From contig NIVC01001157.1 of NCBI GenBank assembly GCA_002269645.1, forward strand, positions 256,312 to 320,311: DNA of 64,000 nucleotides, given 5' to 3'. The position numbers were made by a program, and so were the translations under genes. Position 1 is the stretch's first letter; the number at the start of each line of letters is the position of its first letter. The DNA is from Macrostomum lignano (lineage: Eukaryota). Under the pieces are notes generated by a model. It worked only from the letters and a program-made list of their open reading frames with translations. It searched no databases and was not told the DNA's origin. Of the stretch, positions 1 through 22,795 are shown piece after piece.

Positions 1-1192
1 GCCAGATTGCGTCCCGCAATGCAATTGGCTGAGCTGTGCAACCCCCGACACGCGCTGCAGCGGAACCTGGGAAAGAGTTTGGGACACGCCTCGCAGGAGG
101 TGGCAGCCGTAACCAAGTGTACCCGGTGCTGCTTGTCAGAGTCAACGTACGTCTCGAAATCGTAGTAAACGTACGGGGCGCTAGACTCTTTGGCTTTGGG
201 CGGGGTGACAAAGCACTCGTAGGTGGCTGTTTCGTCGTACTGCTTGCAGACTGGATACTTGGAGTGACCGCACTGATGCTCGGGGGCCTGGCCCACTTTC
301 AGTTCTTCTAGATAGCCACACGTGCCGCAAACGTGGACTGAATCACAGCGAGATCTACCCGCCCTATTCTTGCGCTTGTGATTCTCTTGACACTGAGCAT
401 TATAGCAATTTAGCCCAATTTAATCATGGCATCTCACATGCGCGGTTATGCTTGCAGTTGGCACCCGGGGTCTTGCAGGTGCTGCAGGCGTCTGCGCACT
501 TGTGCTTGGCGTTGCCGCAATCGTAGGCCATCTCGCACTTGGAGCAGTAGTGGTGGCTGCCGAAAAACGCTGGCAGCTTGGTGATCACATTGAAGTGCTG
601 CTCTACGAGGTGGAGGTGCAGAATCTCGGTGCCAGGCAGGTTGAAGATGCACCTGTTGGCCTCCTCAGCCCGGTACACACGTACACCAAAATCATGGCCT
701 GGATGCAGCCGGTTCAGGGCACGGATCGCCTCGGGCAGTACATCCACCCGAAGGCCTGCGAGACGGTTTGAAGAGTGTGTGGGGGGTAAAATATTTATTT
801 TAGTATTCCCTGATACTATGTAGGATTCTTATCGGGAAAATAGTAGAAAATGGTTCTTTTAGTATTCCATGATACTATGTCAAGTGGTTCCTTTAGTAAT
901 CCATGAAAATACTATAAACTACACTATTTTAGTTGAAATTCTTTTCGGGAACATACTAGAAACTTACCGTGTAGAGGCCAGCCTCGATTTGCAGCTTAGT
1001 CGCCAGATTAATGTGCTTAAAAACAACATTCGGCCGTCATGCGGGATGCACGCACCGGGGAGTGTGGGCCGCTTTGAGCATTTTGTCGCTCTCAAATTTC
1101 GCCGCCATGAAATCCTCGCCGGCCAAGTCTTGCTTGAAAACTTTTAGCGTGTGGGCAAACACCTCCCACAAATCTTCAGTGTTACTAATGTG
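1..1192 (-). pseudogene. polB: Distal part of the protein-primed DNA polymerase B gene of the outer Polinton (Cys/His-rich N-terminus running into the exonuclease I motif), with stops/frameshifts; continues beyond window start
   Basis: Minus-strand translation across frames: VVHISNTEDLWEVF..., HLHLVEQHFNVITKLPAFFGSHHYCSKCEMAY...HKC (424-747), YNAQCQENHKRK...SRCDSVHVCGTCGY...EHQCGHSK, then YVYYDFETYVDSDKQHRVHLV (exo I DFET motif, ~115-180). Confidence 0.85.
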
Positions 1193-1198
1193 CACCAC

Positions 1199-1553
1199 AG
1201 TAGTAAGTAAAAGTACGCTTCCAGACCCAGAGGCACCTATTAAACAGCACATTTGAAGGGCTAGAGGGGGGACACGGGGGGAATCAAAAAAACACATGTA
1301 AACACTAAACAGCACAATTAAACACAATTAAACACCCCCAATACCCCCAATAACCCCATTTAATCAAAAACACTATTAACACACCCAATCAAATCCACAC
1401 ATCAGAAATCAAACCCCCATGTCCCCCCTCTAGCCCTTCAAATCCATTGTTTCAATAGGATCTGATCTAGAAGCGTACTTTTACATACTACTACATCCAA
1501 ACACACACAAACACTCTCTAACCCGTCGCCAGCGCCGCAGGCGCAAAGGGTCT
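1199..1553. repeat. Left TIR of inner Polinton
   Basis: Near-identical reverse complement of 12339-12694; begins AGTAGT. Confidence 0.93.
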
Positions 1554-1568
1554 TTTTCTGTTACGAAA

Positions 1569-1883
1569 ATGAACCGAGTTTACACCTTTTCAGTTAGTGA
1601 TACTTTTAAGACTGTTGCTAAAAATTCAGAGATTATAAAACAGCATATTTTGAATGGAATAATTGATGAAGTATATTTAAAATATGATGACAAAAAAGAT
1701 CTAAAACTTTATCCGTTAGATTTGGATGGTTTGTATGATCTAGAACGAGCGGGTGAGTTAATATTTCAACTTGGAGATTATTTAAATTCAGACGATTGGG
1801 AGGTTCGTTCAACTGATTCCGAGTCAACAAATAGTTCATATGAAACTAGTGACTCGGAGAATGAAATTGAAATTTTTATGTAA
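1569..1883 (+). CDS. Acidic hypothetical protein of inner Polinton (104 aa)
   Basis: AAAATG start immediately inside the TIR, open frame, acidic Ser/Thr-rich C-terminus; no family recognised. Confidence 0.5.
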   Translation: MNRVYTFSVSDTFKTVAKNSEIIKQHILNGIIDEVYLKYDDKKDLKLYPLDLDGLYDLERAGELIFQLGDYLNSDDWEVRSTDSESTNSSYETSDSENEIEIFM

Positions 1884-2091
1884 AAATGAATTATTACTCA
1901 GTAACAGAAACTACATTTATTGTGAAAAATATATTTAAAAAAATGAAGGTAAATCGTATCAATGATACGCATGCTTTTCATGATTATTCCTATATCGGAA
2001 ACGTGCCGGCCAATAATTATATTAGTAATAATATTGTTTTTCTTTGTTATAAAAAATTTACTACCCTGTTGCCTTAAGTAATTGTACGAAC

Positions 2092-2900
2092 TTAGTTCGC
2101 AGATATTATCTGGTTCTCATAAAAGGAACCCAATATTTCTTCACCATCTTTATCAGCAATGATATAGGTTGTAGGATTTGTATTTAAAACTTTACTGATG
2201 GTAAATTTCTCACTTATCTTCCAATATCCTTTTCTTCCCTTTTCAAACTTATCTTTCCATTTATAAATATAAACAGAATTACCAACTTTAAAACCTTTAG
2301 TTTTCTTTTTTTCAAACTCTCCAAAAGTGACTTTAACATTTTCAGGAGTGTTATAGCTTGTTGAGGAGTCATTTTTATAGCTGAATGATATGAATTATTA
2401 TAATCTTTCACAACGTCTGGTAATATTTTTACCCACTTTTGGTTACCATTAATACTAAACTGAAACCACAATTTCTTACCTAAAGTTCGATTAACTCTTT
2501 CAATCAGTGCGTTTTTGCTTTCTCCATAAATAGAATAAATTTTATTAATATACTCACCATTCGCGTCTTTTTTCCTTTCTTTTCCTTTTTCAAAATGATA
2601 CAATTTATACATATGATGATTGTAAAATTCTTTTCCTTCATCAACACACAACCTATCACTTTTTTCTCTAAGATTTTTAAAAGCAGCGGCAATCTCCTCT
2701 CCTTTTTTGGATTTCAAAGGAACAGCCCACGCATTTCGAGTAAGATATATCCAGATATAACTATCCAGTATGGTTAAGATATATTTATATCCTCTTTCGT
2801 TCGGCATTGACATTAAATCAGCATATCAAATTTCATTCTTTTTGAAGTTAATGATTTTTCTATAAAATTTAGGCTTTCGGTATTCTTTGTGAAGAACCTT
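2092..2900 (-). pseudogene. int: Polinton retroviral-like (rve/DDE) integrase, with a W-to-stop and a frameshift
   Basis: LHKEYRKP...NEI*YADLMSMP...YKYILTILD...AWAVPLKSK...LCVDEGKEF...ALIERVNRTL...YNNSYHSAIKMTP, plus C-terminal KVGNSVYIYKWKDKFEKG...TYIIADKDGEEILGSFYE. Confidence 0.88.
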
Positions 2901-2989
2901 TGCCTCATCAGAACTTAACCCACCACCACTTAATAACAAACACTCTACACAATTATTTTCATGTTGATTGTAATTAATTCCCAAACCAA

Positions 2990-3680
2990 ATTTCACTTTA
3001 GATTGCAAGATCTTTTTAACCATCCACCGAGTTAATCTCTGGCTTACCGATAATCCCTGTAAATTATCTAATCCTTCAATCATTTTTCTATCGGCTTCAT
3101 GCTTTAATCTTATGCTTCCTCAGGAGAATTCTTGTCAGCATCTCTGTATGCTAAGTCATGATAATATGCTAACCAATCAATACCATTGATGGGAATTGAA
3201 TCAGCTTTTGGAGTATCATCAGGATTTAATCTCAAATCCAGCCTAGTCCCGGGTAGTTTGCCCTCAATCTTTCGAAAGAGGCTGGAGCACACCTTAAGCG
3301 GTTAAATTACCACCCACCTCCGTCTGCTCTCTGAACCTTCTCCTTATACTTTTATACTTAGGAGCTTGACTGCGCATTGTCACCATGTCTTCAAGCTTGT
3401 TACCTTTGGGAAGAGGAGTTACCTCTGTTCCTTCAAAAGATTTCTCAATTGAAGTGGTACTTGAAGCTGTATGACGGGTTTCACGCAATTTGAAGGTGTC
3501 GCCACAAATAGTGACTAGCAGTAGCTTTGCTTCTACCACTCAGGCCACGGGTTAACCTGTGAAGTTCATTGATGGTAGGTGTAGTTCCCCAGTATATTTT
3601 CCAGTAGTAAAGATTGGTGGTAAGCCTGTTAGTCCTTTTTGAACATCTAAAAATCCACCTTCAAACAAAAGTTGGCTCAT
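2990..3680 (-). pseudogene. Parvovirus VP1-type phospholipase A2 gene, interrupted by a ~300-bp insertion and a 1-nt frameshift
   Basis: MSQLLFEGGFLDVQ...GELHLPSMNFTG / PGTRLDLRL...PINGIDWLAYYHDLAYRD...RLKHEADRKM...KVKFGLG; the FTGPG Ca-binding loop and HD motif match the Parvo_coat_N-type PLA2 pattern. Confidence 0.8.
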
Positions 3681-4292
3681 TTTTAATAGCCTTAAAAATA
3701 CAAGTTAACACTAATTGTTTTGCAAATTCTTTAATTGTTGGTTTTTTAACAAATTTAGTTTTATTATCCATAGCAGCTAGGTATCTTTTATTTGTCCAAT
3801 GTTCCGACTTTTTAATTTGTTCCTCATTGCGATAATCAAAAGATGAAGCAGGAATAAAATGATCCACATGCAAAACACCAATATAATCTTTTGGCAAATA
3901 ATAATGTTTGGTGAAATTTAACCAATCTTTAAAGAATTCAATTGGGCAACCAAGATAATAAATAGTATGGTTGTCTTTTTGACCATTAGTTGATTTTAAT
4001 AGTTTATTTATTCTAGTTCGCGTGTTTACAATAAGTTTGAAATTTTCATCTTCACTATATCTTGTTTTTCTATATTGATTAACTTTTTCTTTATTGTTTT
4101 GTGCATATATTAACTTTCTCTATAATTTTTTCTTTATTTTCAGCATAATATCGAGGATAGCAAATATTCTTTTTGATAAAATTTCCCACATTCTTTGCAA
4201 TTACCTTCATATCGATTCTGGGTTATTCTATATCTAAACTCAAGCAAAAAATTCTCTTCTTTACATCTACTACAGATCTTTTTAGTTTCCAT
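3661..4292 (-). pseudogene. HNH-type endonuclease (frameshifted)
   Basis: N-terminal CKEC zinc pair, TRYSEDENFKLIVNTRTRINKLLK...YLGCPIEFFKDWL, then LHVDHFIPASSFDY...HWTN...DNKTK. Confidence 0.65.
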
Positions 4293-4316
4293 TTTATGAA
4301 AAAATAAATTTAACAT

Positions 4317-4994
4317 CTAAATAATTCCTGTATGTCCAGCAGCTTTGGCAGCGGCTAAAACAAGTTTTCGTGGAGTTTTAAATCCTTCGCCAACAGCTCG
4401 TTTGTTATTTATTGATTGATCAATCCTTTTATACAAACTAGTGTTTTTAACACCCCCTACTCCTAACTCATCATAAAAAAATTTAGCACTTACTAATTCA
4501 TCCACAGTATATAAATCAGGATTAAACTTTACTCTAGGGTTCATAATAATATTATATGCTTCACCCAATTCTCTATATAGCTCATTCCGATTTTTATCAA
4601 CCCCACCAATTCGATAATTATCATTATCTAAATCCGTCACGCTAATACTTTGTGGAGAAGCTCTCTGATATTGTTCCCTACCACCCAGTTCTGCAGCCCT
4701 AATCTCTGCAACTCTCAATTGTGCTTGATCAACATCATAAGCGGGCGGTTCATCCTCAATTACATCTTCCTCTTTTGGCTCCGTATTCTTAGCAATTTTT
4801 TCAAGAAGCTCTTTATCAGTTTTTGTTAATTCACTAATTTTCCCCGTAATAGGATTAACAAAAGGAGCAGCAAATCTTTCACCAGCTAACTGTATTCCTA
4901 ACTTTCTTTTTTGTAAATCCCTAACAAAATCAGAATATCTTTGTTTCTCTTTATAAATCGCTAATTCACCATCAACATCCATAAATTGACTCAT
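4317..4994 (-). CDS. Polinton hypothetical protein (225 aa)
   Basis: Long open frame in AT-rich DNA, AAAAAATG start, head-to-head with the capsid gene; no family recognised. Confidence 0.6.
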   Translation of the reverse strand: MSQFMDVDGELAIYKEKQRYSDFVRDLQKRKLGIQLAGERFAAPFVNPITGKISELTKTDKELLEKIAKNTEPKEEDVIEDEPPAYDVDQAQLRVAEIRAAELGGREQYQRASPQSISVTDLDNDNYRIGGVDKNRNELYRELGEAYNIIMNPRVKFNPDLYTVDELVSAKFFYDELGVGGVKNTSLYKRIDQSINNKRAVGEGFKTPRKLVLAAAKAAGHTGII

Positions 4995-5028
4995 TTTTTA
5001 ACATAAAAAACTTTTTTAACTTAAAAAA

Positions 5029-5585
5029 ATGGCTGAAACAAAAAACAGATGGAGTGATAAGTATTATTTCAAAAAACCACGGCAATATATCAATGAGGTC
5101 AGGGCAAAAGATTTAAATTATACCCTACCAACAAGCGATAATTCAAACAATTTTACTACCGGAACGGTAACTTTTGATGTTGGTGCAACTAATACGATAC
5201 TAATGCAACTAAACGCATTTTCCGTGTTAGATGCTTATATACACGAAATGACGGAACAGCTCTTGCGGCCGGCGATATAGCCGATCGTTCTGGTATTGTT
5301 ATCGAGAAAGATTGGTTTTATAAATGTTTTTCCCAAGCGCAACTAAGAATTAACGGAGCTGAGGTTGAGACATCAACAAACCCCGCAGAGATTAATGGAG
5401 TTCTTAAACATTTAAATTATACTTATTTATCAAAACAGGTTGGTGATAATGTTGGATGGATGCCCGATAAGGGAGATGGTGGAGCAATAAATTTTCCTAC
5501 CATAGCACCAGCAGCCGGCGCAGATACCGCTGCTCTTATTAATTACCTTAATACAAACATAGTTCCCGTTGTTGTTGAGCTGTTG
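5029..5585 (+). pseudogene. N-terminal fragment of a Polinton double-jelly-roll major capsid protein (frameshifted, truncated)
   Basis: MAETKNRW...TVTFDV... then, in another frame, WFYKCFSQAQLRINGAEVETSTNP...VLKHLNY, resembling the conserved FSQxxxxxNGxxxE segment of Polinton MCPs. Confidence 0.6.
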
Positions 5586-6828
5586 AGCTAATTTTTTGTA
5601 CATTCAGCCGTATCTTGTTGTTTAGGACATTTGAGGGGTATGTTTGATGCTTCAAAATCAGCATATATTACAATTGGTTTTTTAATTGCCATAAAATGTT
5701 GTTGGAACTTTAATATTTGTTCTTTTTCATTGGGCATTACAACATTAGTAAATAATTAGGTTTTTAAGAGCACTTTCATTCTTTTTAAATGTGAAACAAT
5801 TTCTACATATTGGCATTCTATTTCCATTTGTTCTTAATAAGGAACAAATATCTTTTATGTATATATAATGTGTATTGTTTTCATGCTGTATGTACAATAA
5901 ATCGATTTGGTCTGGTGCTGTTATATCAGTTGCTGGCTTAATAAGAAAACATCTTTTTTTTATATCATTCTTTATCGTGTGCTTTAACCCAATCGTTTGG
6001 CTGTTCAATTGAAAATACATTAATATTTAACCCATTCATTTTTTCAATCTTATATATATCATCTATGGATACTGGGTAGGATATGTCTTTCATTATTATT
6101 TCATCCACATAATCTCTAATAATATATTTTATTTACATGCCATTTTACTTGTTTGTGATATTTTTGAATTAGTAAACACCATAATAAACACTTATCATCT
6201 TCATTGTTGGGATTTATGATCATGGGAGATGTAAATCCTGGATCCATATGTGATCGTCCTCGAAGAACTTCAATAGGAACAATCTTTACTGTGGCTGAGT
6301 TATAAGAAACAAAAATGAAGCCTGATCCGTTTTCTGTCATCTTATCAATCCATTTATCAAACTCTGCTTCGATATTATCAAATTGTTTGGTATATGTTCC
6401 CATTGATAAAAGTGACTTATATGATTCTTGTGAAAAGGTATTTATTACTTCAATTTCTGAAATTGCATTTATCATATTTGGTTTTTTAAATTCTGTTTCA
6501 ATTTCAATTTTATACCTAACTGGCTGCCGTTTGTTATTTTGTCTCATAGTATATTCGTCTAATACGGTCTTTAATTTTTCTTTCATTTGTTTAAAATATT
6601 CTTTATAATCTGTATTCATATCAATATTAATATTTATTATTTCAGCACCATTCGCTGGTGGTGATGCTGTTTGTTCGATAATATCTAATTGTGTTTGTAA
6701 ATTGATTTCATTTTCTGCTCTAATTCTAGCTTCTATTTCCGCCCTATCGGCAATTCGTTGTGCTTTGATTTGAGCTATTAATTGAGCTCTAAGTTCTGGG
6801 TTGTCGATTTGAGCTAAAATATTTCCAT
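5585..6828 (-). pseudogene. polB: 5' part of a second, different pPolB gene (GSG[W/F]-type N-terminus) truncated just after exonuclease motif I
   Basis: TENGSGFIF...LRGRSHMDP...IINPNNEDDKCLLWCLL; IDLLYI...THYIYIKDICSLL...ICRNC; PIVIYADFEAS at ~5650-5690. Confidence 0.8.
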
Positions 6829-6879
6829 TTTATAGAATAAAATTTATACAATGTTTGAATTATTGGTTTTTTAATTTTA

Positions 6880-7812
6880 TGTTTTGGGCATCCTGACCCT
6901 CCCCACAGGAGCTTATTCGAGTTCCGCTTTTGGTAACAGTAAGCCACTACCCATAACGTTTGCATTTAAGAAGATTCCTGAACCTGCTTTTGGTCGCATT
7001 TCGAGATATAATCCGCTTCCGTCATGTTTTTTAATTATGTTAAAATCTTTTCCTAATTTATTAAAAATTTTCTGAACCGCAGGTCTAAAATTAGCTCCGA
7101 TATTGTCGAAAAATCCTTTAGCTTCTTCGCCGGTTTTTCCAAGGTTTGACCGAATTCATGAAATTTGTCTGCGACAACTCCGCTTCCGTGGGTCATTCCT
7201 TGCAAGATTAAACCCTCACCGTGAGTTGTTCCTTTTAAAATTAAACCTTTTCCGGCTGCTAACCTAGCTTCTGCATTTTTTTTGTTCTGGTGTTGCTGAA
7301 CTACTATTAATTGTGTCTATAAGTTTTTGTTTGAATTGTGCGTCCTGCGTTATTTGCTGTCTTTGAAATTCTGCATCTCGTTTAGCTTTTTCATCCGCAG
7401 CTTTTTTGTCATTTACTGCTTTTGCAACTCCAGCCGCTCCACCAGCGACTCCTTCAGCCGCGGCAATTCCTCCAAAAATTATTGGGAGCAAAGTTGCAAG
7501 TGGAAGTATGCCCCCTTGTTTTTCTTTTAATTTTGCTCACTGTTTTCGGTTATCATGAATCCTTTTGCCTGCTAAACCGGCTGCTCCTGCTGCCCCAAGT
7601 CCTAAAAGGATTGGTAGAAAGGGTAGTAATCCACCATCCCTTTTTATGTGAGTCTCCATTAAAAATTTTACATCAGAATCTGTTAGCCTATAGGTTTTAC
7701 GGTTGTGCTTAAATGAAATGGGTCTTCCTTCTTGTGCATATTTTGCAGCGAGTTTAAAAGTATCAATATCATAATCCAATTTTTTACCTAAACGATCTAA
7801 TCTTTTTAACAT
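6880..7812 (-). pseudogene. Gly-rich virion core / membrane-active-like protein gene(s), frameshifted
   Basis: DGGLLPFLPILLGLGAAGAAGLAG (7537-7812), LPIIFGGIAAAEGVAGGAAGVAKAVNDKKAA (7264-7491) and repeated GxGL/GSG motifs (6884-7260); a pattern I recognise from Polinton structural genes. Confidence 0.5.
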
Positions 7813-8034
7813 TGAGTGACTATGTTTGTTATCATCTAAATTTAAGGTGTCTACTATTTCTCCTATAAAATAAAGACGATACTACTAAGCAACGGTAGAT
7901 CCGTCGATTTTGGAGGTGGGGTGGGTGTCAACCCTCCTCGCCTCTCATTGGCTGGCGCCCCGATCACTAGGTGATAGATACCCGTATCGATATCGGCGCT
8001 CGGCGCGCGCGCGCCGCAGGCGCGTGGCGCCAAG

Positions 8035-9435
8035 CGCCGCAGGCGCACCTACCGATATGTACCGATATGTATGCTCACCCTACCGACATGTACCCCGATA
8101 TGTACACCCTCCCGAGCCGCAGGCGCACCCTCCTGAGCCGCAGACGCCCATGCCGCAGGCGCCCCGAGTGTACACTCTCCCGAGCCAAAGGTACACTCTC
8201 CCCAGTACACTCTCCCCAGTACACTCTCCCGATATGTACACTCTCCACAGTACACTCTCCCGATATGTATGCATACACAGATATGTAGTCAACGATATTA
8301 GGCTAGTGAAAACTACTTATAGTAGGTGAAATTGAGTATATTTACATAAAAATGTAGATAAAACATATTGGTAGGTGAATAATGACGCATATTACATATT
8401 AAAATGTACATATTGGAGCATATGAGCAGCAAAAACACACAATGTAGGTGCATATTTGACAGAAATAGACAAAGCAGGTACTGTAAGCACTACATAGGTG
8501 GTAATACACACAGTATAAAGTAGGTTTACAAAGTGTACTTTCGATACATATCGGATTAATGTATAAAGCGGGTTTACAAGGCATGCATATATCAGAAGGT
8601 GTAGTTGTATAATACAGGCGCGCATGTATAATCAGATTATAGGCAAACGCCCAGGTGCAATTTCAACAGACGCGTAAATAATGTCACACCGACTAAAGAG
8701 TAAATATTGTCTAACCCGCAGGTGCATAAATATTAAACAAAAGCGGTTCGGGGAAATCCCAAAAGGGAGGTTTTAGCCGCCCGTTTTCGCCGCCCTAACC
8801 CTCTTATGGGTACAATTGCGTTGAAAATATTTCAAGTCATTAGGTTGTAAGACCCTCCATATTTTAGGTGGGTGGACTCGAGCCCGGGGCCAGCCCATTA
8901 CAGTTTTTTGGGCCGGCCCCTCTGCCAATTTCCTCCCTAGGTGCGAGCTATCAGAATTGGTCTTTTAACCCCCGTGTATACACACATAGAGGCCCCCCAG
9001 CTAGCGTCCCATTCTAACCTACCCAGTGTACAGTGTTGGGTTCCCCAAACCGCGTACAAAGAGAAATACCTTATCAGTCAATCTCCATACGCTCCCTCAG
9101 GGCTGTCTCGTACGCGGCCTCTTCCTCCACGCTCTCGAAGCAGTAGTCGGATGACTGGCAATGTGGAAATTATAACAGTCAATGTAGATAGAATATAGGC
9201 AAGGTATATGATTAGATGAGTTGTGTATACAGTGTAATATCTTACCAAACCTAAATCCTCCTCCAGCCGCCACAGGCGTAGAGACGCTGTATAGCGCACC
9301 AACGAAAGGTGCTCCTCCCAGTTGGTAGACCGGATAGCTACTGCAGGCTCATCCCACGCAGTCGGGCGCGCTCCCGGACCGGCCAGGTACGCCTCCGAGT
9401 CGGGGGCATACGAATTACGCCCTATTAGCCAATCC
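8035..9435. repeat. Left arm of a ~1.4-kb inverted duplication
   Basis: Reverse complement of 10661-12070 with a few substitutions and small indels; includes short TACACTCTCC and GCCGCAGGCGC repeats at 8035-8280. Confidence 0.93.
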
Positions 9436-10010
9436 TGGTGTAGCGTCTCCGCCTCCAGCACCTCCCGCAGATCAGCCCCTCGGGCCACCAAAGTATCAAG
9501 AACCCGATTAAAGGCTCTGACAAAGGTGGCTTGGGAGGGCAGGCCGCCAGGGTGGCGAGACCTCAACCAGTCAATGTCCCCGCGGAAAAATGAGGCCACA
9601 ATGCGAGGAAAGCGCTCACGAACCACGGCGATCTCCTCAGACATATCCTCGTCCTCATCGTCGAAGAGAAGGAGCGTAGAGGCTGATGATATTGAGGCCC
9701 GGTGGGAGGTAGTTGAAGCAGAGGCGGCAGCGGCAGAGACGGGCGCAGTAGAGACAGAGGCGGCAGCAGCAGCAGGGGCGCCGTTCACAACCCCGCCGAT
9801 AGCCAGCAGCGGGAGGTCAAAAACTTCAGAGTCGGTGTCGCTATCATAGGACATGGCCCAAGCTAGATATTGATCAGCCTCCCAATTATCGGTTCCGTTG
9901 TTTTCAGTGCCTAGGGGAACTATGTGTTCAGGGATATCACCCTCGAGGCTGGTTAACTCTTCAGTCGGGCGATTATTATCCCAGAGGTTGGATAGAGCTC
10001 GGCGGGCCAT
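9078..10010 (-). CDS. Orphan protein (310 aa), acidic/Ala-rich N-half
   Basis: CAACATGG start with a TATATAA box at ~10077-10083; homologous 5' end recurs at 14752-14790. Confidence 0.6.
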   Translation of the reverse strand: MARRALSNLWDNNRPTEELTSLEGDIPEHIVPLGTENNGTDNWEADQYLAWAMSYDSDTDSEVFDLPLLAIGGVVNGAPAAAAASVSTAPVSAAAASASTTSHRASISSASTLLLFDDEDEDMSEEIAVVRERFPRIVASFFRGDIDWLRSRHPGGLPSQATFVRAFNRVLDTLVARGADLREVLEAETLHQDWLIGRNSYAPDSEAYLAGPGARPTAWDEPAVAIRSTNWEEHLSLVRYTASLRLWRLEEDLGLVRYYTVYTTHLIIYLAYILSTLTVIISTLPVIRLLLRERGGRGRVRDSPEGAYGD

Positions 10011-10121
10011 GTTGGAATCAACAGAGAGTAAAGTATTAGAGCTAGGATAGGTTCGACTCTCCAGAGAGGAAACACTAATTATATAGACGGATCGAGTGAG
10101 GCGGTGCGAACCAATAGGAAA

Positions 10122-10655
10122 CTAGCAGTCCCAACCCTCGTTATACAGATTTTCCCAGGGCGGAGATTGGTAGGGTTTGAGACCCACAAGCTGAAGAACA
10201 TCCTCCTCAGTCCTGGCTACCGGAGGCGTGTCTGTCTTGACTCGCTTGGCTGGAGGGGGTGCCTCAGGTACCGGCTTGAAGAGCTTGTCCAAACGGGCGG
10301 CAAACATCCTGCGCCACAGTTCAGGCGTGAATTCGATCGTGTAGCGCCAATTAAACTTTGGGTCCTGATTGAGCCAATTGCGCAGCAAACGGATCCTCCC
10401 TCGCGAAGCTTCAACTGCCTTGAAATTGCCCAACAGGACCCGCTTGTTCACGTGAAGGCGGGCAGCAGCCTCCAGGTCAGGGCGCGCAGCTTCGAGCTTC
10501 TTCCACTCTGGCTCGCTCAAGTAGATTGCAGGGAAGCCGTCCTTCCACACTCCGGCCTCGTTGGTGTAGAGACGCCGAATTTCAATCAAGTTGTGTTCAG
10601 TTTCAAATGTGGGCTTCCGCGCCACAAAGTTTTCGTATAGAGAGATAGAAGACAT
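10122..10655 (-). CDS. Tandem PC4-like (putative ssDNA-binding) protein, 177 aa; original promoter replaced by the inverted arm
   Basis: LIEIRRLYTNEAGVWKDGFPAIYLSEPEWKKL fits the PC4 core pattern IDIRxY...GxxKxG..IxL..EQWxxL; a second weaker repeat ends TIEFTPELWRRM; close paralogue of 14090-14635. Confidence 0.6.
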   Translation of the reverse strand: MSSISLYENFVARKPTFETEHNLIEIRRLYTNEAGVWKDGFPAIYLSEPEWKKLEAARPDLEAAARLHVNKRVLLGNFKAVEASRGRIRLLRNWLNQDPKFNWRYTIEFTPELWRRMFAARLDKLFKPVPEAPPPAKRVKTDTPPVARTEEDVLQLVGLKPYQSPPWENLYNEGWDC

Positions 10656-10660
10656 GATTT

Positions 10661-12070
10661 GGATTGGCTAATAGGGCGTAATTCGTATGCCCCCGACTCG
10701 GAGGCGTACCTGGCCGGTCCGGGAGCGCGCCCGACTGCGTGGGATGAGCCTGCAGTCTGCTATCCGGTCCGGATAGCTACTGCTATCCGGTCTACCAACT
10801 GGGAGGAGCACCTTTCGTTGGTGCGCTATACAGCGTCTCTACGCCTGTGGCGGCTGGAGGAGGATTTAGGTTTGGTTAGATATTACACTGTATACACAAC
10901 TCATCTAATCATATACCTTGCCTATATTCTATCTACATTGACTGTTATAATTTCCACATTGCCAGTCATCCGACTACTGCTTCGAGAGCGTGGAGGAAGA
11001 GGCCGCGTACGAGACAGCCCTGAGGGAGCGTATGGAGATTGACTGATAAGGTATTTCTCTTTGTACGCGGTTTGGGGAACCCAACACTGTACACTGGGTA
11101 GGTTAGAATGGGACGCTAGCTGGGGGCCTCTATGTGTGTATACACGGGGGTTAAAAGACCAATTCTGATAGCTCGCACCTAGGGAGGAAATTGGCAGAGG
11201 GGCCGGCCCAAAAAACTGTAATGGGCTGGCCCCGGGCTCGAGTCCACCCACCTAAAATATGGAGGGTCTTACAACCTAATGACTTGAAATATTTTCAACG
11301 CAATTGTACCCATAAGAGGGTTAGGGCGGCGAAAACGGGCGGCTAAAACCTCCCTTTTGGGATTTCCCCGAACCGCTTTTGTTTAATATTTATGCACCTG
11401 CGGGTTAGACAATATTTACTCTTTAGTCGGTGTGACATTATTTACGCGTCTGTTGAAATTGCACCTGGGCGTTTGCCTATAATCTGATTATACATGCGCG
11501 CCTGTATTATACAACTACACCTTCTGATATATGCATGCCTTGTAAACCCGCTTTATACATTAATCCGATATGTATCGAAAGTACACTTTGTAAACCTACT
11601 TTATACTGTGTGTATTACCACCTATGTAGTGCTTACAGTACCTGCTTTGTCTATTTCTGTCAAATATGCACCTACATTGTGTGTTTTTGCTGCTCATATG
11701 CTCCAATATGTACATTTTAATATGTAATATGCGTCATTATTCACCTACCAATATGTTTTATCTACATTTTTATGTAAATATACTCAATTTCACCTACTAT
11801 AAGTAGTTTTCACTAGCCTAATATCGTTGACTACATATCTGTGTATGCATACATATCGGGAGAGTGTACTGTGGAGAGTGTACATATCGGGAGAGTGTAC
11901 TGGGGAGAGTGTACCTTTGGCTCGGGAGAGTGTACACTCAGGGCGCCTGCGGCATGGGCGTCTGCGGCTCAGGAGGGTGCGCCTGCGGCTCGGGAGGGTG
12001 TACATATCGGGGTACATGTCGGTAGGGTGAGCATACATATCGGTACATATCGGTAGGTGCGCCTGCGGCG
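10661..12070. repeat. Right arm of the ~1.4-kb inverted duplication
   Basis: Reverse complement of 8035-9435; carries the 3' half of the 310-aa ORF (10659-11042). Confidence 0.93.
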
Positions 12071-12218
12071 TATGTGATGTGAGCTGGGTTAATTTTTTTT
12101 TCGCTTCGTGATAAAATTGAGTTCTTCTTATATGCATTTATATAACATTTAGCTGCGTGGGTGGGGTGATGAATGTCCACATTCCATTTAGCTGCGTGGG
12201 TGGGGTGATGAATGCCCA

Positions 12219-12283
12219 CATTCCATTAAGGCCAGATTTTTGAAAACGAAAACGAAAACGAAAAATCTGGCCTTAATGGAATG
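12219..12283. repeat. Short hairpin: ~23-bp inverted repeat around a (GAAAAC)n loop, preceded by a 39-bp tandem duplication
   Basis: CATTCCATTAAGGCCAGATTTTT ... AAAAATCTGGCCTTAATGGAATG. Confidence 0.75.
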
Positions 12284-12338
12284 TTGAGTGCGTGGGTGAG
12301 CTGGCTAAAAATAGCTTCTATTCTTTCTCTACCATTCT

Positions 12339-12694
12339 AGACCCTTTGCGCCTGCGGCGCTGGCGACGGTTAGAGAGTGTTAGTGTGTGTTTGGATGTAG
12401 TAGTATGTAAAAGTACGCTTCTAGATCAGATCCTATTGAAACAATGGATTTGAAGGGCTAGAGGGGGGACATGGGGGTTTGATTTCTGATGTGAGGATTT
12501 GATTGGGTGTGTTAATAGTGTTTTTGATTAAATGGGGTTATTGGGGGTATTGGGGGTGTTTAATTGTGTTTAATTGTGCTGTTTAGTGTTTACATGTGTT
12601 TTTTTTATTCCCCCCCGTGTCCCCCTCTCTAGCCCTTCAAATGTGCTGTTTAATAGGTGCCTCTGGGTCTGGAAGCGTACTTTTACATACTACT
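12339..12694. repeat. Right TIR of inner Polinton
   Basis: Reverse complement of 1199-1553; ends ACTACT followed by TSD CACCAC. Confidence 0.93.
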
Positions 12695-13859
12695 CACCAC
12701 ATATTCAACGCCCTTTGCCCTAAACTTAGGCAGGTCGCGTTGATTATACAGCCGGGCCGTAAAACCTGCAGAGAATGAATGGGGGTGTGAGTCAGCCTGG
12801 GTCTGTCTGGGGAATGGGGGCTAGATAACTCACCCGGTCCGGTAACAGATTCCGGCTGTGTTGGCGGGACAAACGCGTCTGAAAAAAACACAAGGAGATA
12901 AAAACCAGAAGAATCTGTCATTTTCCTGGCCCCAGCGTGTTCGGACAAAGAGGCACCCCTCCCAACTCTATCCCAGCAAGTTCCTATCAGCCCTGGCACC
13001 CCTCTGTCGCAGCACCCTAACAGCAGCAATTCACCAACTCTATCCTGCAACTATTTCTTATCAGAGTCTTTGTTTACTCTTCTGCACCCCTCCAATTCTC
13101 ACAGACCCTGCAGCTGTTGCTGCTAACCCTGCTGAAACGTGTCAAGCCCTCCCCAGCAACTGTGTCTGTTTTTGCTACAGACCCCGCTAATTTCTTATCA
13201 GTACCCCAACCGCAGCACACCCCCCGCCTGTCTGGACACGCGCAGCACCCTATCTGCAGCCCCAGTCTTCGTTTACGCTGTCCCTGCCAGCCCGTGTAGC
13301 TATCACAGCACCGCTAAATCTACCTAGCACGTGTCTGCAATTTTTTAACCCTAACGATTATCTGTTACAGACCCTGCCTATTTCTTATCAGCAACGTACC
13401 CTCCTGCCTAGCAACTCCAGTCTAGACCCCTGCAGCTTTCGCAGCAGCCCCAGTCTTTGTTTACTCTGCTGCACCCCTCCAATTCCCTGCAGCAGTTAAC
13501 CCTAGCAACTCTCTGTCACCGCACCCCAACGATTATCTGTTACAGACCCTGCCAATTTCTTATCAGCACCCCAGCTGCAGCCTGTCTGGGCAGCTCCGTA
13601 CACGCACCCTATCTGCAGCCCCAGTCTTTGTTTACACGCGCAGCTCACCGTGCTGAAACTTGTCTAGACAGCGCTAAACCCTTGCAGCTGTCGCAGCAGC
13701 TCACCCCACTGCTAATTCTTATCGGTACCCTGCCGCAGCACCCTAGCAACTCTAGTCTAGACTGATAAACAACTGGCCAGAAATTAATTAAAACCTACCA
13801 TAAAGACGCTGCCTCTTATCAGCCAGGAAAGCAGTTGGTGCTGCGCTGCGTTTAGCCAT
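12695..13859 (-). pseudogene. polB: 5' end of the outer Polinton pPolB gene: exon 1 13859-13799, predicted intron 13798-12766, exon 2 from 12765 to the insertion site
   Basis: ATG at 13859 gives MAKRSAAPTAFLADKRQRLY+G|GTAGGT; acceptor ATTCATTCTCTGCAG|GT; joined frame GFTARLYNQRDLPKFRAKGVEYVV continues in frame as HISNTEDLWEVF at 1192 once the insert and one TSD copy are removed. Confidence 0.7.
13020..13760. repeat. Degenerate tandem repeat, unit ~170-195 bp, ~4 copies
   Basis: CAG(CCCCA)GTCTT(T/C)GTTTAC recurs at ~13062, 13257, 13445 and 13617 with shared downstream blocks. Confidence 0.7.
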
Positions 13860-14045: not shown

Positions 14046-14089
14046 TGCACGGCTGTCAGAGAGCTCTGTGCTGCTGCTACTGCTAAATC

Positions 14090-14635
14090 ATGTCTTCTAT
14101 CTCTGTATACGAAAACTTTGTGGCGCGGAAGCCCACATTTGAAACCGAGCACAACTTGATTGAAGTTCGGCTGCTCTACACCAACGAGGCTGGAGTGTGG
14201 AAGGACGGCTTCCCTGCAATCTACTTGAGCGAGCAAGAGTGGAAGAAGCTCGAAGCTGCGCGCCCTGACCTGGAGGCTGCTGCCCGCCTTCACGTGTACA
14301 AGCGGGTCGTGTTGGGCAATTTCAAGGCTGTCGAGGCTTCGCAAGGAAGGATTCGTTTGCTGCGCGATTGGCTCAACGTGGACCCAAAGTTTAATTGGCG
14401 CTACACGATCGAATTCACGCCTGAACTGTGGCGCAGGATGTTTGCCTCCCGTTTGGACAAGCTCTTCAAGCCGGCACCTGAGGCCCCACCGCCTGCCAAG
14501 CGAGCCAAGACAGAGACCCCTCCGGTAGCCAGGACTGAGGAGGAAAATCTGCAGGACGTTCTTCAGGTTGTGGGTCTCAAACCCTACCAATCCCCGCCCT
14601 GGGAAAATATGTATGACGAGGGTCGGCACTGGTAG
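14090..14635 (+). CDS. Tandem PC4-like protein (181 aa) of the outer Polinton
   Basis: Intact ORF with TATA box and AAATCATG start; LIEVRLLYTNEAGVWKDGFPAIYLSEQEWKKL motif. Confidence 0.62.
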   Translation: MSSISVYENFVARKPTFETEHNLIEVRLLYTNEAGVWKDGFPAIYLSEQEWKKLEAARPDLEAAARLHVYKRVVLGNFKAVEASQGRIRLLRDWLNVDPKFNWRYTIEFTPELWRRMFASRLDKLFKPAPEAPPPAKRAKTETPPVARTEEENLQDVLQVVGLKPYQSPPWENMYDEGRHW

Positions 14636-14974
14636 TTTCCTATTGGCTCACACCACCTCACTGGGATCTACTATATAATTAGTGTTTCCTCTCTCTCCAG
14701 AGAGCCAAACCCCATCCTAGCTCTAATACTTTACTCTCTGTTGATTCCAACATGTCCCGCCGAGCTCTATTTAACCTCTGGGATAATAATGTGAAAGTAT
14801 GAAAGTGTGACAGTACTTTCATTTAAAAATGGCCCCACTGGTGTCCATTATAAGCGTTCTCATTGGTTGATAAGATTATACAAAAGAGAGACTGGAAATG
14901 ACTTGTTACTAAAAATAACTCAACACTGCTAATGCGATCGTATTTCAAATTGGCTAAGTCATAACCCGTAACCG

Positions 14975-16891: not shown

Positions 16892-18199
16892 CGAGAATAA
16901 GTCACTCAGAAAGTTCTTAGCTTGAACACGAAAACAGCAACAAATGAACTAAAAAACGACTACAAGTGCTCAAAATACTCTCCACCGGCATTGATACAGG
17001 CTTGCATCCTGTGAAACCAGCTGTCGAAGCACTGCCGCCAATCCTCATCCCGGAGCTCCTCGATGATGTTTTTAAACTCATTCACAGCTTCTTCCGGTGA
17101 AGAAAAGACCTGGCCCTTCAGAATCTCCTTGCACTTCGGAAACAGAAAAAAGTCGCACGGTGCCAGGTCTGGACTGTAAGCAGGGTGAGTCATCAGCTGG
17201 ACCCCACAGTCAGCCAGAAACTCCAGAGTTTGAGCCGCCGTGTGCGCGCTGGCGTTGTCGTGGTGCAGAAGCACCCCACGCATTCCGCACCTTGGGCGCC
17301 TCTGGCTCACAGCAGAAAAGACCTTGGGCAGGCAAACCGTTGTGTACCAGTCAGCGGTGACTGTCTGGCGATCTTCAAGTGAAACGGAAGCCACATGCCC
17401 AGTGCGCATGAAGAAACAGGCCACCATCTGCTTGCCGACACTCCGGCTGCGTCGAAACTTTGTGGGGCTGTCCTCGTCTCCAAAGGTCCACATGGCTGAC
17501 TGGCGCTTGCTTTCGGGGTCGTATTGATAAATCCAGGTCTCATCGCCCGTGAGGATGTCCCAGATACGCCGGCTGGTCCCGGATTCGAATTTCTGCAGCA
17601 TGAATCGGCACCAAGCCACCCTGGTGTCCTTCTGCACGTCCGACAGCTGATGGGGGATCCACTGGGAAGCCAGCTTCCGCACTCCAAGGTGTTCGTGCAT
17701 AATGGCGTGCACACTCCCCGATCCAATACCGATCTCCTGCTGGATCTGCTGGTAGGTCACTCGCCGGTCAGCGGCAATCATGCTGGACACAGCGCAGATA
17801 TTTTGTGGAGTCACTGCGTCACAGGGTCTCCCGGATCGATGTTCATCTTCGAGGCTTTCTCGACCTCGGCGAAACTCAGCAAACCAGTTTTTGACGGTTG
17901 CGTATGAAGGACATACATGGGTGAAAACGTTCTGTAAAGTTTGATACGATTCGGCCGGCGACTTGCCTTGCTTGAAGTGCAGGTACAACATTGCTCTGAA
18001 GTCGCGATTTTCCAGCTTCATTGTTGAATTGAAGAACTCAGGGGTGAACTGACTTTAACTCGCTGCAGTGGACTCAAAAGTGGCTGCTTCTGTTTGAAAT
18101 TTTTGCTGTGATACTTTTAAAAGTTGGTCTTTACCATAGACAAATTTCATGCTTCTACGTCTCGTGGATCCTACTCAGGCTAAAGACTTTCTGAGATCG
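16892..18199 (-). mobile_element. Mariner transposon, full length (~1.3 kb)
   Basis: TA at 16890-16891 and 18200-18201; imperfect TIRs sharing TCAGAAAGT(TC/CT)TTAGC(T/C)TGA; intact transposase inside. Confidence 0.88.
16960..18021 (-). CDS. Mariner D,D34D transposase (353 aa, intact)
   Basis: WIPHQL, TGDETWIY, HHDNASAH, YSPDLAPCDFFLF; 34 residues counted between the second and third Asp. Confidence 0.95.
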   Translation of the reverse strand: MKLENRDFRAMLYLHFKQGKSPAESYQTLQNVFTHVCPSYATVKNWFAEFRRGRESLEDEHRSGRPCDAVTPQNICAVSSMIAADRRVTYQQIQQEIGIGSGSVHAIMHEHLGVRKLASQWIPHQLSDVQKDTRVAWCRFMLQKFESGTSRRIWDILTGDETWIYQYDPESKRQSAMWTFGDEDSPTKFRRSRSVGKQMVACFFMRTGHVASVSLEDRQTVTADWYTTVCLPKVFSAVSQRRPRCGMRGVLLHHDNASAHTAAQTLEFLADCGVQLMTHPAYSPDLAPCDFFLFPKCKEILKGQVFSSPEEAVNEFKNIIEELRDEDWRQCFDSWFHRMQACINAGGEYFEHL

Positions 18200-18298: not shown

Positions 18299-21125
18299 TG
18301 TAATATCTCGTTGTTGATTTTCGCTCATTGAAATAAAGAATTTATCTCGCCTCGCTCTAAAACTAACACTGAACAGAATGAACTTTTCTTAGTCATTTGC
18401 GACACAATAATGGCGTCGCAAGCAGGCAGACAACAGAGCCAAGAGCTCGATTTGGAAAATGCAGAAATGGCCGAGGCGTGGATGCAACAGCTATCGGCAA
18501 CAGCACGCATCAAGAAGCTCTCCGACTCTGACCAAGCTCGAGACAAAACGGACTTGTTTCTATCAATGGCGGGACTCCAAGCAATCCGCATCCTGTCCCT
18601 CATGGCAGCACCCAAACAGTTGGATGAAATGACGTTTGACGACATCAAGAAACTCGTCGACAGCACAATTCGCCCTAAAAAGCGCCTCGTCATCGCTGAG
18701 CGCACGAAATTTCTCAATTTGAGGCAGGAGGCAGGGGAGAGCGTCATGCCGTACTTCCGAAGGCTGAGAGCTGCTGCATCGCTATGTGAATTTGAGACAC
18801 TGGACTAAATAAAACGACATGATCGTCATGTGACTCATCGATGGTCTGGTTTCGCCTGAACACAAGAAGCAGATTCTCGAGCGGCTGCAAGAAGGCGACA
18901 TGTTGCTAGACAGCATTCTGCAGAGCCTACAGCACCTAGAGCAGATCAGGGACTACAACGCTCCCGCGACTGCGGACATCGCATTCACCGGCCAGCAGAA
19001 GAGCGCGTCACCTTCAAGGACATCGGCAATCTTTAAATGCAGATTCTATGGCACCAGCCACCCTAGAGGCAGCTGTCCGGCATACGGCAAAAAGTGCACC
19101 AATTGCCAGAAGAAGAATCACTTCGCGGCTGTCTGTAGATACCGAGCTGTCCACTTGGAGACAACAGGGTCTGCTGAGGAAGCGGAAGTGTATGCTGTAG
19201 GCCCCAGCGCAGCAAGGACTGGCCTTTTCAGGACCATTAAGATCAACGGCTGTTGCGTGCCAATGCAGGTCGACACCGGCGCGGAGGTCAGCCTCATTCC
19301 GCAGAACCTCTAGCGACAGCTCGGCCGCCCAGCCCTGCGCAAGTGCAAGAGAATTCTGCGGCAGTTTGATGGCTCCAGCATTGCTTGCCTGGGCGAATTC
19401 ACTGCGTCGCTCGAGACCGACTCAAGGTTCGTGGCAGTCGATTTGTTCGTCACCGTTGCGGAAAAGAAGCACGGGTTGCTCGGCATGAACAACATCAAGC
19501 TGCCGAAAGACGCCGTCACCATCAACGAGATACAGCAGCTCGGCTGTCTCAAAGGCTTCCAGGCCAAAATCAGACTCGTTGAGGGAGCCATGCCGTTCTA
19601 CTGCGCTGCACGATCAGTGCCGCTACATCTCAGGGACCTGGTGGTGCGTGAGCTGCAGCGAATGAAGTCTGAAGGCATCATTGAGCCAGTCCCTGCCGGA
19701 GGCAGCCAGTGGGCGTCCCCTATTATCAACGTCCTGAAGCCCAATGGAAAAGTGCGAGTATGCGCCGACTTCAAGGCTGAGTGAATCATCAGATCTGCAA
19801 CGACACCTACCCAAAGCCGGAAATGGAGACCATATTCTCCGAAGTCGCTGGCATGACGCTTTTTGCCAAGCTCGACCTCTCGGACACCTACCTGCAGATC
19901 GAGCTAGACGAGGACAGCGAGAAGTGACCACTATTTCAACGCCACTCGGCCTTTTCAGGTACAAGAGACTGGTGCCTGGTCTGAAGTCAGCGTCATCGAT
20001 TTTCCAGAAGGCCATGCAGACAATCCTGGAAGACATCAGCAGCAAAATTGTCTACCAGGATGACATTCTTCTGGGTGCGAAGTCCGACTCCGAGCTCAAT
20101 CAAAAAGTGCAACGCGTACTGCAAGCTCTGCAGTCAGCTGGAATGACAATCAACCTGGACAAATCGAATCTAAGAGAAACAGAAATTTCCTTCCTAGGCT
20201 ACAGAATCAGCGCCTCAGGAATAACTCCGGACCCGGAGCTGGTGGAAAAAAATCGCTCTGTGAAGCCTCCTAAGGACAAGAAGCAACTGGAGTCTTTCCT
20301 GGGACTTGCCAACTTCTTTGGTCGGTTCATCAAGCTACTCAGATGTCGTCGAGCCGCTAAATCAACTGCCAAGCCGAGCAGCAGAGTTCAACTGGGGTCC
20401 TGCTCAGCAAGCTGCTTTCTCACTGATCAAGGACATTCTCAGCCGAGGACCGGTCATTAAGCCTTACAACAAGCGCGAGGAGACCACGCTCACTACTGAC
20501 GCCAGCGAGAAGGCCATTGCAGCGGTCCTGTCTCAGGCCGGACACCCGGTCATGTACTTCAGTCGGCGGTTGAGCAGCGCTGAGACTCGCTACTCCAACA
20601 TTGAGAGAGGCGCTCGCAATCGTCTGGGCCATGGAGCAAGCCAAGCAATTCCTGCTGGGATCGCGCTTCACGCTGAGAACCGACCACCGCCCGCTGGAGT
20701 TCATTTTTGGCACGAGGCGCCAGCTGCCCAAGGTTGCGAACGCCAGGCTGCTTCTGTGGGCCATAAAGCTGATGGCATTTGACTATGACATCATCTACAC
20801 CAAGGGCGAGTCGATTCCGCAAGTCGACGCCCTAACACGGCTGGACTTCGACGACGACAGCTCGGAGAATCAGGGCGAGCAGCTCGAGAGCGTCATCCAC
20901 TGGACGGCAGAAGCCGTAATACCATGGCAGGAGCTCAAGGAAGAAACCCTGCGGGAGAGGCTGCTGACGGACGTTATGAAGCGAGTCGCCACTAACAGAG
21001 TTCCAACTGCTCGCCAGCCGAGAAGCCCTTCAAAGCGGCCCGATGCGCCCTGACTGTGGAGGACGGAGTTCTCTGCTACGGCGACCGCGTGGTGATTCCG
21101 GCCGTCCTCCGGCAAAAAACACTCT
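18299..21125 (+). mobile_element. Decayed Ty3/Gypsy LTR retrotransposon (candidate short 5' LTR 18299-18406, gag, protease, RT, RNase H, start of integrase)
   Basis: TGT...ACA segment followed by PBS-like TGGCGTCGCAAG; gag AERTKFLNLRQEAGES; knuckle CTNCQKKNHFAAVC; protease VDTGAEVSLI; RT YQDDILL; RNase H TTDASEKAIAAVL; many stops/frameshifts. Confidence 0.88.
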
Positions 21126-21134
21126 GGCTAGTGC

Positions 21135-21330
21135 ACAACGATACTCAACAAGGATCCTTTTGAGTATCGCCCCTGCGCCCCCCTTCTTTTCTGATTCTGT
21201 CGGGGATAATATGGATGGATTTAATGGGATTATGTTCGAAGTTTTTAGAGCAAGTGCGGCCCCCCTTTTTTTATTCTGTTGGGGATAACATGTGTGGATT
21301 TAATGGGATAATGGAGGACGTGAAAAATTT
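21135..21330. repeat. Dispersed repeat with an internal duplication; related inverted copy at ~41010-41200
   Basis: TTCTGTCGGGGATAATATGGATGGATTTAATGGGAT vs ATCCATCCATATTATCCCTGACAGAA. Confidence 0.6.
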
Positions 21331-21344
21331 TGTCCCAAAAGCCC

Positions 21345-21590
21345 CCTCATGCATTTTACTCTTCCTAATTTTCTGTTAATGAGCCTCATTATGACGGCTC
21401 GATTGCGCCATATTGTGCAACTTTTCAGCGCCAAGGAAGGCTGCTTTGAGTGCATGGAGGCAGCAGAACAGTTCCTATTTCAGATACTAGCAGCCGACAA
21501 GTGCCTAAGATGTGACTGCGGCCCTATGCTTGCAGCACAAGGCAGCGGCCACATCACTCTCCTCCAGCTAAAATCGTAAATTGTCAACTT
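21345..21590. repeat. Fragment of unclassified repeat family
   Basis: TGTTAATGAGCCTCA(T/A)TATGACG...GATTGCGCCAT block shared with ~22640-22770 and ~62560-62760. Confidence 0.75.
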
Positions 21591-22039
21591 TATTAAAAAA
21601 GATGTTACATGCAAAAAAAGTAATTATATAATTTGGCAGAAAAGGAGAATTATTGAATTGGCGTTATGGTAACTGGCAAGCATGCAGAAACTAATATTAC
21701 ACGTAAGTTAGTAAGAGGAAGAGATGGTTCCAGACAATTGAGCATGATTCCTACAATGCCTGAAAATTACTAAATTGAGACCTGAATAGTGTCGCAGAAT
21801 AGTTATTAAACTTATGAAAATAAGGAAATGCTCGAAAATAAAATAATAAGTTCTCAAGCTAAATTTAGCAAATGCGGAGTTGAGGCCTAATTGGCCTGTC
21901 ATACCAATTCTAACGAAATGCAAAATTTTGGTTACTAAGATCCTAGAGTTAAATTGAGAATTACATGTTGAGATAATAGAATGACAAGCAGATGCCGATT
22001 TTGAGTTCCTGAACTAATAAAAACTAAGAGTTATCCGCG

Positions 22040-22795
22040 CGACAGTTCCGATTAATTCTTCCCATTCTTCCTCAGCAGGAGAGCCCGAAGCGGGGGCGTC
22101 AGGCCGAGGCATCCCAGCTCATCGGCGAACCTTCGGCCGACTAGTTCGACCGCACTCGGGTCAAAGTCCCGATCTCTGAGTCTCTTGACAGCCAGACTGG
22201 CAGCCCACTCAAAAAGGCTGACGCGGTACTGCTGATCTTCCGTCCGAAGCTGCTCCGCGGTATCGGGCGGCAAGCTCTCAAAGAGGTGGCCGCGGGTGCC
22301 AGCCAAAAGAAGCACTTCGGCGGTCCCAATCGCCTGCTTCTCCTTTACCCAGGCGGCCAAGTCAGCAGTCGACGTGGCGCGGCTGGTCGGCGACGGCGAC
22401 GGAGGTTGCGCCCCAACCTCGGGAGGTGGCCCTGGTGGCCTAATGTTCTTCTCTCTTGTTTCTCCTGGCTCGGACGCAGAAGGAACGAGAGAGCAGAAGG
22501 GGAGAGGGTCTAGCGAACGCACAAGGGGAGGAGTGTAGCTTACTAGACTTGCGTACACTGAGCGATCGTACGCGGCAGGCCAGACATCAACAGTACAGGC
22601 AAGCGCCAAATTTGGCAGCTTTCACTAACTAACCCTAGGCTAGGATAACTTCCTATTTCCTATGTTAATGAGCCTCAATATGACGAATCGATTGCGCCAT
22701 ATTGTGCAACTTCTCAGCGCCAAGGAAGGCTGCTTAGAGTGCATGGAGGCAGCAGAACAGTTCCTATTCCTATTCCAGTTCCTATTCCTATTCCT
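22040..22795 (-). mobile_element. Unclassified repeat element with a coding remnant (185-aa frame) and a (TTCCTA)n tract at its junction
   Basis: RPPGP...DLAAWVKEKQAI...RGHLFESLPP...LRTEDQQYRVSLFEWAASLA is homologous to 36640-37070; 5' part matches ~62415-62560. Confidence 0.6.

Follow-up and report, generated by a model that had tools for sequence, protein, structure and literature searches.

Does a mobile element lying inside the polymerase gene of another record an attack of one endogenous virus on another, or a chance event? The question is raised by a 64,000-nucleotide stretch of the Macrostomum lignano genome (NIVC01001157.1, here contig C1157, positions 256312-320311 of the 764-Mb assembly GCA_002269645.1), the whole of which is called the window. 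An earlier note had described there a Polinton (Maverick) nested in the DNA polymerase gene of a different Polinton. We found that the inner Polinton, element B, does split an exon of a gene for a protein-primed DNA polymerase (pPolB), that the gene belongs to a copy of a family of small elements (family A), and that a second A copy (A') sits within B. The locus is therefore a three-layer stack: an old A copy, Polinton B in its polymerase gene, and a younger A' in B. The earlier note had missed the third element (7881-12070), and also that the outer one falls short of a full Polinton. A single nest alone is ordinary; the small family A, not the nesting, is the unusual part.

Element B starts with AGTAGT at 1199 and ends with ACTACT at 12694, and its 355-bp terminal inverted repeats (TIRs; 1199-1553 and 12339-12694) are identical at 350 of 357 aligned columns. 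The hexamer CACCAC stands on both sides (1193-1198 and 12695-12700) as a perfect target-site duplication. Ends, repeats and duplication had been read correctly before; B proper stops at 12694, and the previous limit of 12700 included one copy of the duplication. When the two flanks were aligned separately to C493, an unbroken A copy, the right flank (window 12763-12695) matched residues 12-34 and the left flank (window 1198-1007) matched residues 33-96 in the same exon frame; the overlap of two codons is the duplication. Uninterrupted copies, which had been proposed as a check, were found, and GTGGTG occurs once at the insertion site in seven of nine, with other letters in the other two. The right junction was found again in contig C1158. 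At the left junction, 0.89-1.00 of the words of the stretch 960-1440 were present in 13 sequencing runs from four studies (one possibly the source of the assembly), a measure of word content and not of aligned reads; no RNA run on record contained this stretch. In a 30-sequence alignment, the insertion site lies N-terminal to a Cys present in 30/30 relatives and a His present in 29/30. Under the domain scheme used for pPolB in passages of 10.1101/2024.03.18.585575 (a terminal-protein region, then a vOTU protease), the site would fall in the terminal-protein region ahead of the protease.

The gene that received B carries many other lesions. A deletion of ~265 bp near 1010-1016, a stop at 1040, an intron without its acceptor and five frame-shifting indels in exon 4 lie beyond the insertion; exon 4 extends past the window edge to a point ~1.13 kb upstream, at which the element breaks off, and the last three pPolB exons and both ends of the element are missing. 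The copy is the most diverged of 15 A copies compared (92.8% to the nearest, 5 frameshifts). The earlier claim that excision of B joins one frame leading into a Cys/His region and a DFET exonuclease motif held in part: the flanks match adjacent residues of one exon, but the idea of a single open frame was wrong, as these lesions break it. Because of them and of the lost exons and ends, and because other A copies are transcribed and spliced, a knock-out of the replicase by B cannot be shown, and the statement that one had occurred went too far.

The second A copy, A', interrupts the core-protein-like gene of B and is 96.1% identical to the nearest A copy, with one frameshift. Its right end and a central 6.3 kb are missing from the window, where it measures 4.2 kb. 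Both parts are present in the sister contig C1158, in which A' is 10.5 kb long, holds most of the polymerase and is flanked by an ATCGTC duplication; the two contigs are 99.7-100% identical across the shared parts. The short form may reflect either a real deletion or the collapse of an inverted repeat. By divergence, the layers are ordered as outer A, then B, then A'.

Element B has the AGTAGT ends, TIRs and 6-bp duplication of Polintons/Mavericks (described in passages of PMC8097293 and 10.1101/2023.08.22.554363), and its lineage also shares with them an rve integrase, an A32-type ATPase (PF04665) and a long pPolB, here with an Endonuclease VII domain, in full copies of 18-20 kb. The window copy is without the ATPase gene. 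A genome-wide Pfam family search for the A32 ATPase returned 0 matches even though the genome has such genes, so it carries no information. The lineage has 237 TIR-motif matches in the genome, and 6-bp duplications flank 9/9 paired copies. The related integrase ORF (open reading frame) in contig C283 scored above the PF00665 cut-off and weakly with PF08398. The B-lineage pPolB, a 1325-aa ORF in C2379, itself gave no PF03175 match; it is 28-37% identical to the polymerase of another lineage, C, which passes PF03175. A 496-aa ORF, without a capsid Pfam match, is by size and place the putative major capsid protein. No adenain-like protease match occurred among the B ORFs scanned with Pfam, a scan that included no search aimed at the protease. 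Each B TIR (1199-1492, 12399-12694) opens with a 294-nt unit that has end inverted repeats of ~80 bp around a C/A-rich loop, and the predicted stem of ~80 bp has a fold z of -13.7. A possible cis-element common to A and B is the motif GCCGCAGGCG(C), which lies at the inner edge of the B TIRs (1530-1552) and recurs several times in the A TIRs (8005-8150).

Lineage C, the third Polinton lineage, is abundant and young; its ends read AGTAGAAGG (AGTAGAA; 348 end matches in the genome), and 98 scored capsid genes are at 98-100% identity. Its integrase is of the rve class, and its polymerase, which has the Endonuclease VII domain, is of the B type. In tblastn at E 0.01, neither the polymerase exons nor the other proteins of family A matched B or C copies, and the view that the inner and outer polymerases are of different types was borne out.

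Family A is defined by the end pattern ACTACTA, with 246 matches genome-wide and 0 for the reversed control. On contigs C1-C845, 31 of 32 paired copies span <10 kb (median 9.0 kb), and the 32nd holds a B insertion. The TIRs are 0.9-1.4 kb long and start with ACTACT, not AG/AGT. A sister subfamily, A2 (ends ACTACGTA), has ~63% amino-acid identity to A and the same exon layout and size; duplications of 6 bp were present at 10/10 paired A and 3/3 paired A2 copies. At C157:58000-112000, at least five A2-type polymerase matches lie within ~55 kb, and polymerase matches unlike the A/A2 profile, possibly of a further subfamily, were seen at C4851:24614, C157:110176 and C513:404970.

The gene content of A is pPolB, a PC4-like ORF placed head to head with it, and ORF3, lacking in some copies. 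The polymerase passes the PF03175 cut-off, has the invariant exonuclease and polymerase residues of the 30-sequence alignment, and, unlike the polymerases of B and C, is without the Endonuclease VII domain. It is ~30-40% identical to thousands of database relatives, and UniRef entries of M. lignano match the outer polymerase at 90-99% identity; the large polymerase exon had no match when its sequence was compared with the PDB. For the PC4-like ORF, the Atlas lead was PC4 at 0.85, below the reliable level, and the A2 homologue just passes PF02229. ORF3 had no Atlas match. For relatives of both ORF3 and PC4, the names given in UniRef disagree with one another and lack Pfam support. One A2 copy carries a dUTPase.

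The A pPolB gene contains six GT-AG introns, of which introns 4-6 split polymerase motifs A, B and C. Four introns were seen as joints in three presumed-RNA runs from three studies; one run showed a joint for intron 1, two runs showed the short intron 2 as a bridged gap, and the DNA run contained no such joints. The RNA status of these runs is a guess, and the data are assembled contigs that carry no level or strand information.

No capsid or ATPase gene was found in the family A copies examined. The integrase, capsid and ATPase proteins of B had no match inside paired copies C1640, C1263, C1485 and C3085, and 40 frames scanned in the C493 copy (63 frames of at least 70 aa listed) gave no integrase or recombinase Pfam match. 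Polintons by definition encode polymerase and integrase (a passage of PMC5499653), so the host of B fails the usual definition of "a different Polinton". Of the two Polinton lineages proposed earlier, what remains is a Polinton in the pPolB of another lineage, whose integrase, capsid and ATPase genes were not found.

How, then, does family A integrate? A has the duplication length and target profile of B and no integrase, in a genome rich in integrase-coding Polintons, and this combination suggests that A was probably integrated in trans by a Polinton integrase. The target hexamers, with each site counted on both strands, have A at position 2 in 30/62 (A) and 50/104 (B) against a background of 0.27-0.28, and C at position 3 in 27/62 (A) and 52/104 (B) against 0.22-0.23; the A and B profiles were not different (P 0.75, 0.075, 0.23). 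CACCAC fits this weak local preference common to both. The two integrase-coding lineages are abundant (237 and 348 end motifs, with rve matches). Inverted-duplication derivatives with perfect duplications were seen in A' of C1158 and in the A2 copy C3085, and would be consistent with copying by strand displacement ahead of integration. The polymerase type and these clean derivatives suggest that A copies itself from the TIRs. The mechanism we consider fairly likely, for the stack and the family together, has A as a self-copying satellite: its own protein-primed polymerase and PC4-like protein would let A multiply as linear DNA, starting from the inverted repeats, the rve integrase of Polinton lineage B or C would act on the ACTACT ends of A, and B would have fallen into the outer A copy by chance, probably when that copy was already decaying.

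Several points weigh against this. A (ACTACTA) and A2 (ACTACGTA) do not end like B (AGTAGTA) or C (AGTAGAA), and an integrase that they borrowed would have to accept these foreign ends. The target preference common to A and B is weak and was counted on both strands, and such a preference may be general to rve integrases. ORF3 carries no known function. The polymerase searches scored only 36-40 of 545-652 candidate loci, and the three divergent loci on C4851, C157 (110176) and C513 (404970) are known only by their polymerase matches, which leaves room for a larger A-type element with its own integrase. The decay of the outer copy and the arrival of B are also too close in scale to be ordered: the two TIRs of B differ at 4/354 sites, and ~635 codons of the outer copy hold 8 second-position changes private to it, which is the same order of age. 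We lean, less firmly, towards the broader view that A represents a class of animal Polinton satellites not described before, namely a 9-kb nuclear replicon that retained its own protein-primed polymerase, acquired host-type introns in motifs A, B and C, dropped integrase and capsid, and spread to well over 100 copies in two subfamilies through the integrases of unrelated Polintons, with insertions of satellite into helper and of helper into satellite.

The best-surviving alternative, itself unlikely, is that A copies arose by deletion from a complete A-type Polinton or virus, which would have ACTACT ends, encode an integrase and lie at other loci or outside the assembly. The distinct end sequence suggests an integrase of its own, most candidate loci are unscored, and on C1-C845 a search within 45 kb left 35 single A ends without a partner. 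However, the 32 pairs included no long copy, the A2 sister is equally small in layout despite its divergence, and a distant relative used as query recovered mostly A and A2. Ten variant or unpaired loci proved to be A pieces (L073, L080) or nothing Polinton-like; large autonomous A elements with variant ACTACT ends were sought at such loci, and nothing was found in those examined.

Other nests bear on whether Polintons and A are steered into one another, by targeting or by integration into co-replicating linear DNA, which we judge slightly less probable again. At C271:276939-317558, a B-lineage Polinton (282527-314471, identical TIRs of 350 bp, GAGATA duplication) lies in intron 1 of an A copy, ~200 bp from the window site in element coordinates. 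At C1412:113829-138958, an A copy with near-identical TIRs and a TACATG duplication lies inside a lineage C Polinton. B lies within B between the minor capsid and fibre-like genes at C574:9889 and C2328:19600 (both junctions, two contigs), and in a B polymerase gene near codon 1211 at C1064:81618 (one junction seen). Pooled, four nests compare with 0.41 expected under uniform insertion. Yet this count mixes samples, C1412 was chosen since A and C matches lay close together, and uniform insertion is a weak null because A copies also hold ordinary retrotransposons. The nest sites share no sequence. None of 62 distinct B flanks lay in A or A2, which leaves the targeting idea of the earlier note unsupported, and none of 20 independently sampled A flanks lay in Polinton genes. 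The B flank count excluded, among the first 40, three without a terminus, two with doubtful termini and three repeats of one site, and among later rows one same-event pair and two repeats; the ambiguous flanks C273 and C904, with Polinton pieces some hundred bases off, were left uncounted. A symmetric count on C1-C845, with region size estimated, gave one cross-family nest against 0.26-0.47 expected. On the flank samples and this count, targeting of pPolB or A by B was rejected. The best fit is chance, with nesting no more than mildly in excess, and the nest in the window is real but probably a chance event. A further candidate, C1319, taken as a third case of B in A2, proved to be a shared repeat present also in an A2 copy.

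Integration of A by the integrase of a long terminal repeat (LTR) retrotransposon, or by ORF3 as an unrecognised transposase, appears quite improbable. ORF3 is without assignment and LTR elements are common in the window and the loci, but the duplication length and profile of A equal those of B, and LTR integrases mostly leave 4-5 bp duplications and need TG...CA ends. ORF3 is missing from C1247 and C1131 and was not detected in A2, and its low-confidence structure model is all helix (pLDDT 47). An assembly artefact is hardly credible: the window and C1158 disagree inside A' (4.2 kb vs 10.5 kb), and at the left junction C1158 is interrupted by an N gap, but the empty-site hexamer is perfectly duplicated on both sides, two contigs hold the right junction, and the left-junction words occur in runs of four studies.

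Compared with Polintons/Mavericks, A has the TIRs, 6-bp duplications and pPolB, but is about half the size, has ACTACT and not AGTAGT ends and six spliceosomal introns in pPolB, and has yielded no integrase, capsid or ATPase gene. Intact vertebrate Mavericks, as described in sections of PMC8097293, have intronless genes, AG/AGT ends and 6-bp duplications; intronless core genes are also described in text of 10.1101/2022.07.12.499685, introners in dinoflagellate elements in text of PMC11957031, and pPolB is paired with DDE integrases in examples given in 10.64898/2026.10.13.758929. Like non-autonomous DNA transposons, A carries ends and not the integration enzyme; unlike them, it has a conserved spliced replicase, and its ends differ from those of its presumed helpers. 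Non-autonomous Polintons are known from Repbase-era work. Cytoplasmic linear plasmids (pGKL-type) and transpovirons are capsid-less linear replicons with TIRs, as A would be; A is known from integrated copies and differs in being integrated in a nuclear animal genome, with >100 copies, 6-bp duplications and spliced introns. Transpovirons have a Tlr1-like helicase and depend on giant viruses. The plasmids descend from proto-polintons that lost the morphogenetic module, according to a passage of 10.1101/2024.03.18.585575.

Mobile elements within endogenous Polinton-like elements have precedents. Passages of PMC8547959 report Ngaro retrotransposons nested in EMALE virophages, in about one in four EMALEs, with some types preferring them, and a part of PMC12220804 reports retroelements nested in cryptophyte Polinton-like viruses (PLVs). 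The present nest is similar, but here two pPolB elements are involved, and the counts revealed no strong preference. A literature search, which left most subscription journals outside, returned no Polintons nested in each other and no integrase-less, intron-bearing pPolB family in an animal; Repbase and Dfam, also outside it, may list the family.

If the satellite reading is true, a successful family with a spliced polymerase and no integrase would mark a way in which a virus can become a helper-dependent replicon of the nucleus, much as capsid loss gave cytoplasmic plasmids. With A one could then test directly whether a Polinton integrase is strict about its ends (AGT versus ACT). Where copies with two types of polymerase are nested, polymerase swaps would also have a physical setting; text of 10.1101/2023.08.22.554363 describes two polymerase classes and proposes exchange between Polintons. 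The features of the stack are collected in Table 1.

Table 1. Features of the nested elements in the window (pPolB, protein-primed DNA polymerase; TIR, terminal inverted repeat)
Feature	Position	Strand	Basis or remark
Target-site duplication, left copy CACCAC	1193..1198	.	sequence
Target-site duplication, right copy CACCAC	12695..12700	.	sequence
Element B, internally deleted decayed Polinton, AGTAGT lineage	1199..12694	.	full relatives 18-20 kb
B left TIR	1199..1553	+	
B right TIR	12339..12694	-	
B rve integrase with PLA2-like N-terminus, two frameshifts	2095..3301	-	87-94% to C283 ORF
B ORF with HNH-like motif	3664..4119	-	motif read from sequence; no Pfam match
B conserved 223-aa ORF	4323..4997	-	80% to C283 ORF; no Pfam match
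B putative major capsid gene, first 188/496 codons, frameshifted	5029..5582	+	cut by internal deletion near 5590
B pPolB, first 425/1325 codons, three frameshifts	5594..6823	-	relatives with Endonuclease VII domain
B core-protein-like ORF, weak Adeno_PX match	6916..7878	-	broken near codon 15 by A'
A', second family A copy inside B	7881..12070	.	left end ACTACT at 7881
A' ORF3	9081..10055	-	
A' PC4-like ORF, likely single-strand DNA binding	10125..10658	-	
Outer A pPolB exon 1	13799..13859	-	intron 1 joint in one presumed-RNA run
Outer A pPolB exon 2, 45 nt	12834..12878	-	sequence plus joints and bridged gap in presumed-RNA runs
Outer A pPolB exon 3, portion before insertion	12695..12765	-	alignment to C493
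Outer A pPolB exon 3, portion after insertion, ~265-bp deletion	968..1198	-	
Outer A pPolB intron 3, acceptor AG lost in window copy	777..967	-	
Outer A pPolB exon 4 (Cys/His region, DFET exonuclease motif), frameshifted	1..776	-	
Outer A PC4-like ORF, head to head with pPolB	14087..14632	+	
Outer A ORF3 start; element breaks off at 14790	14683..14790	+	

The rest of the window is a transposon-rich tract, with a mariner transposase (16960-18054), reverse-transcriptase pieces (19738-23555), a hAT transposase (24825-27278) and a gag fragment (61176-61649). An element at 47141-60799 has perfect inverted arms of 3087 bp and weak Tnp2-like and methyltransferase matches, and is probably a CACTA-like transposon. 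The AGTAGT near the start of its arm is internal in the copy on C1638, and the arm has at least 29 near-identical matches in the genome.

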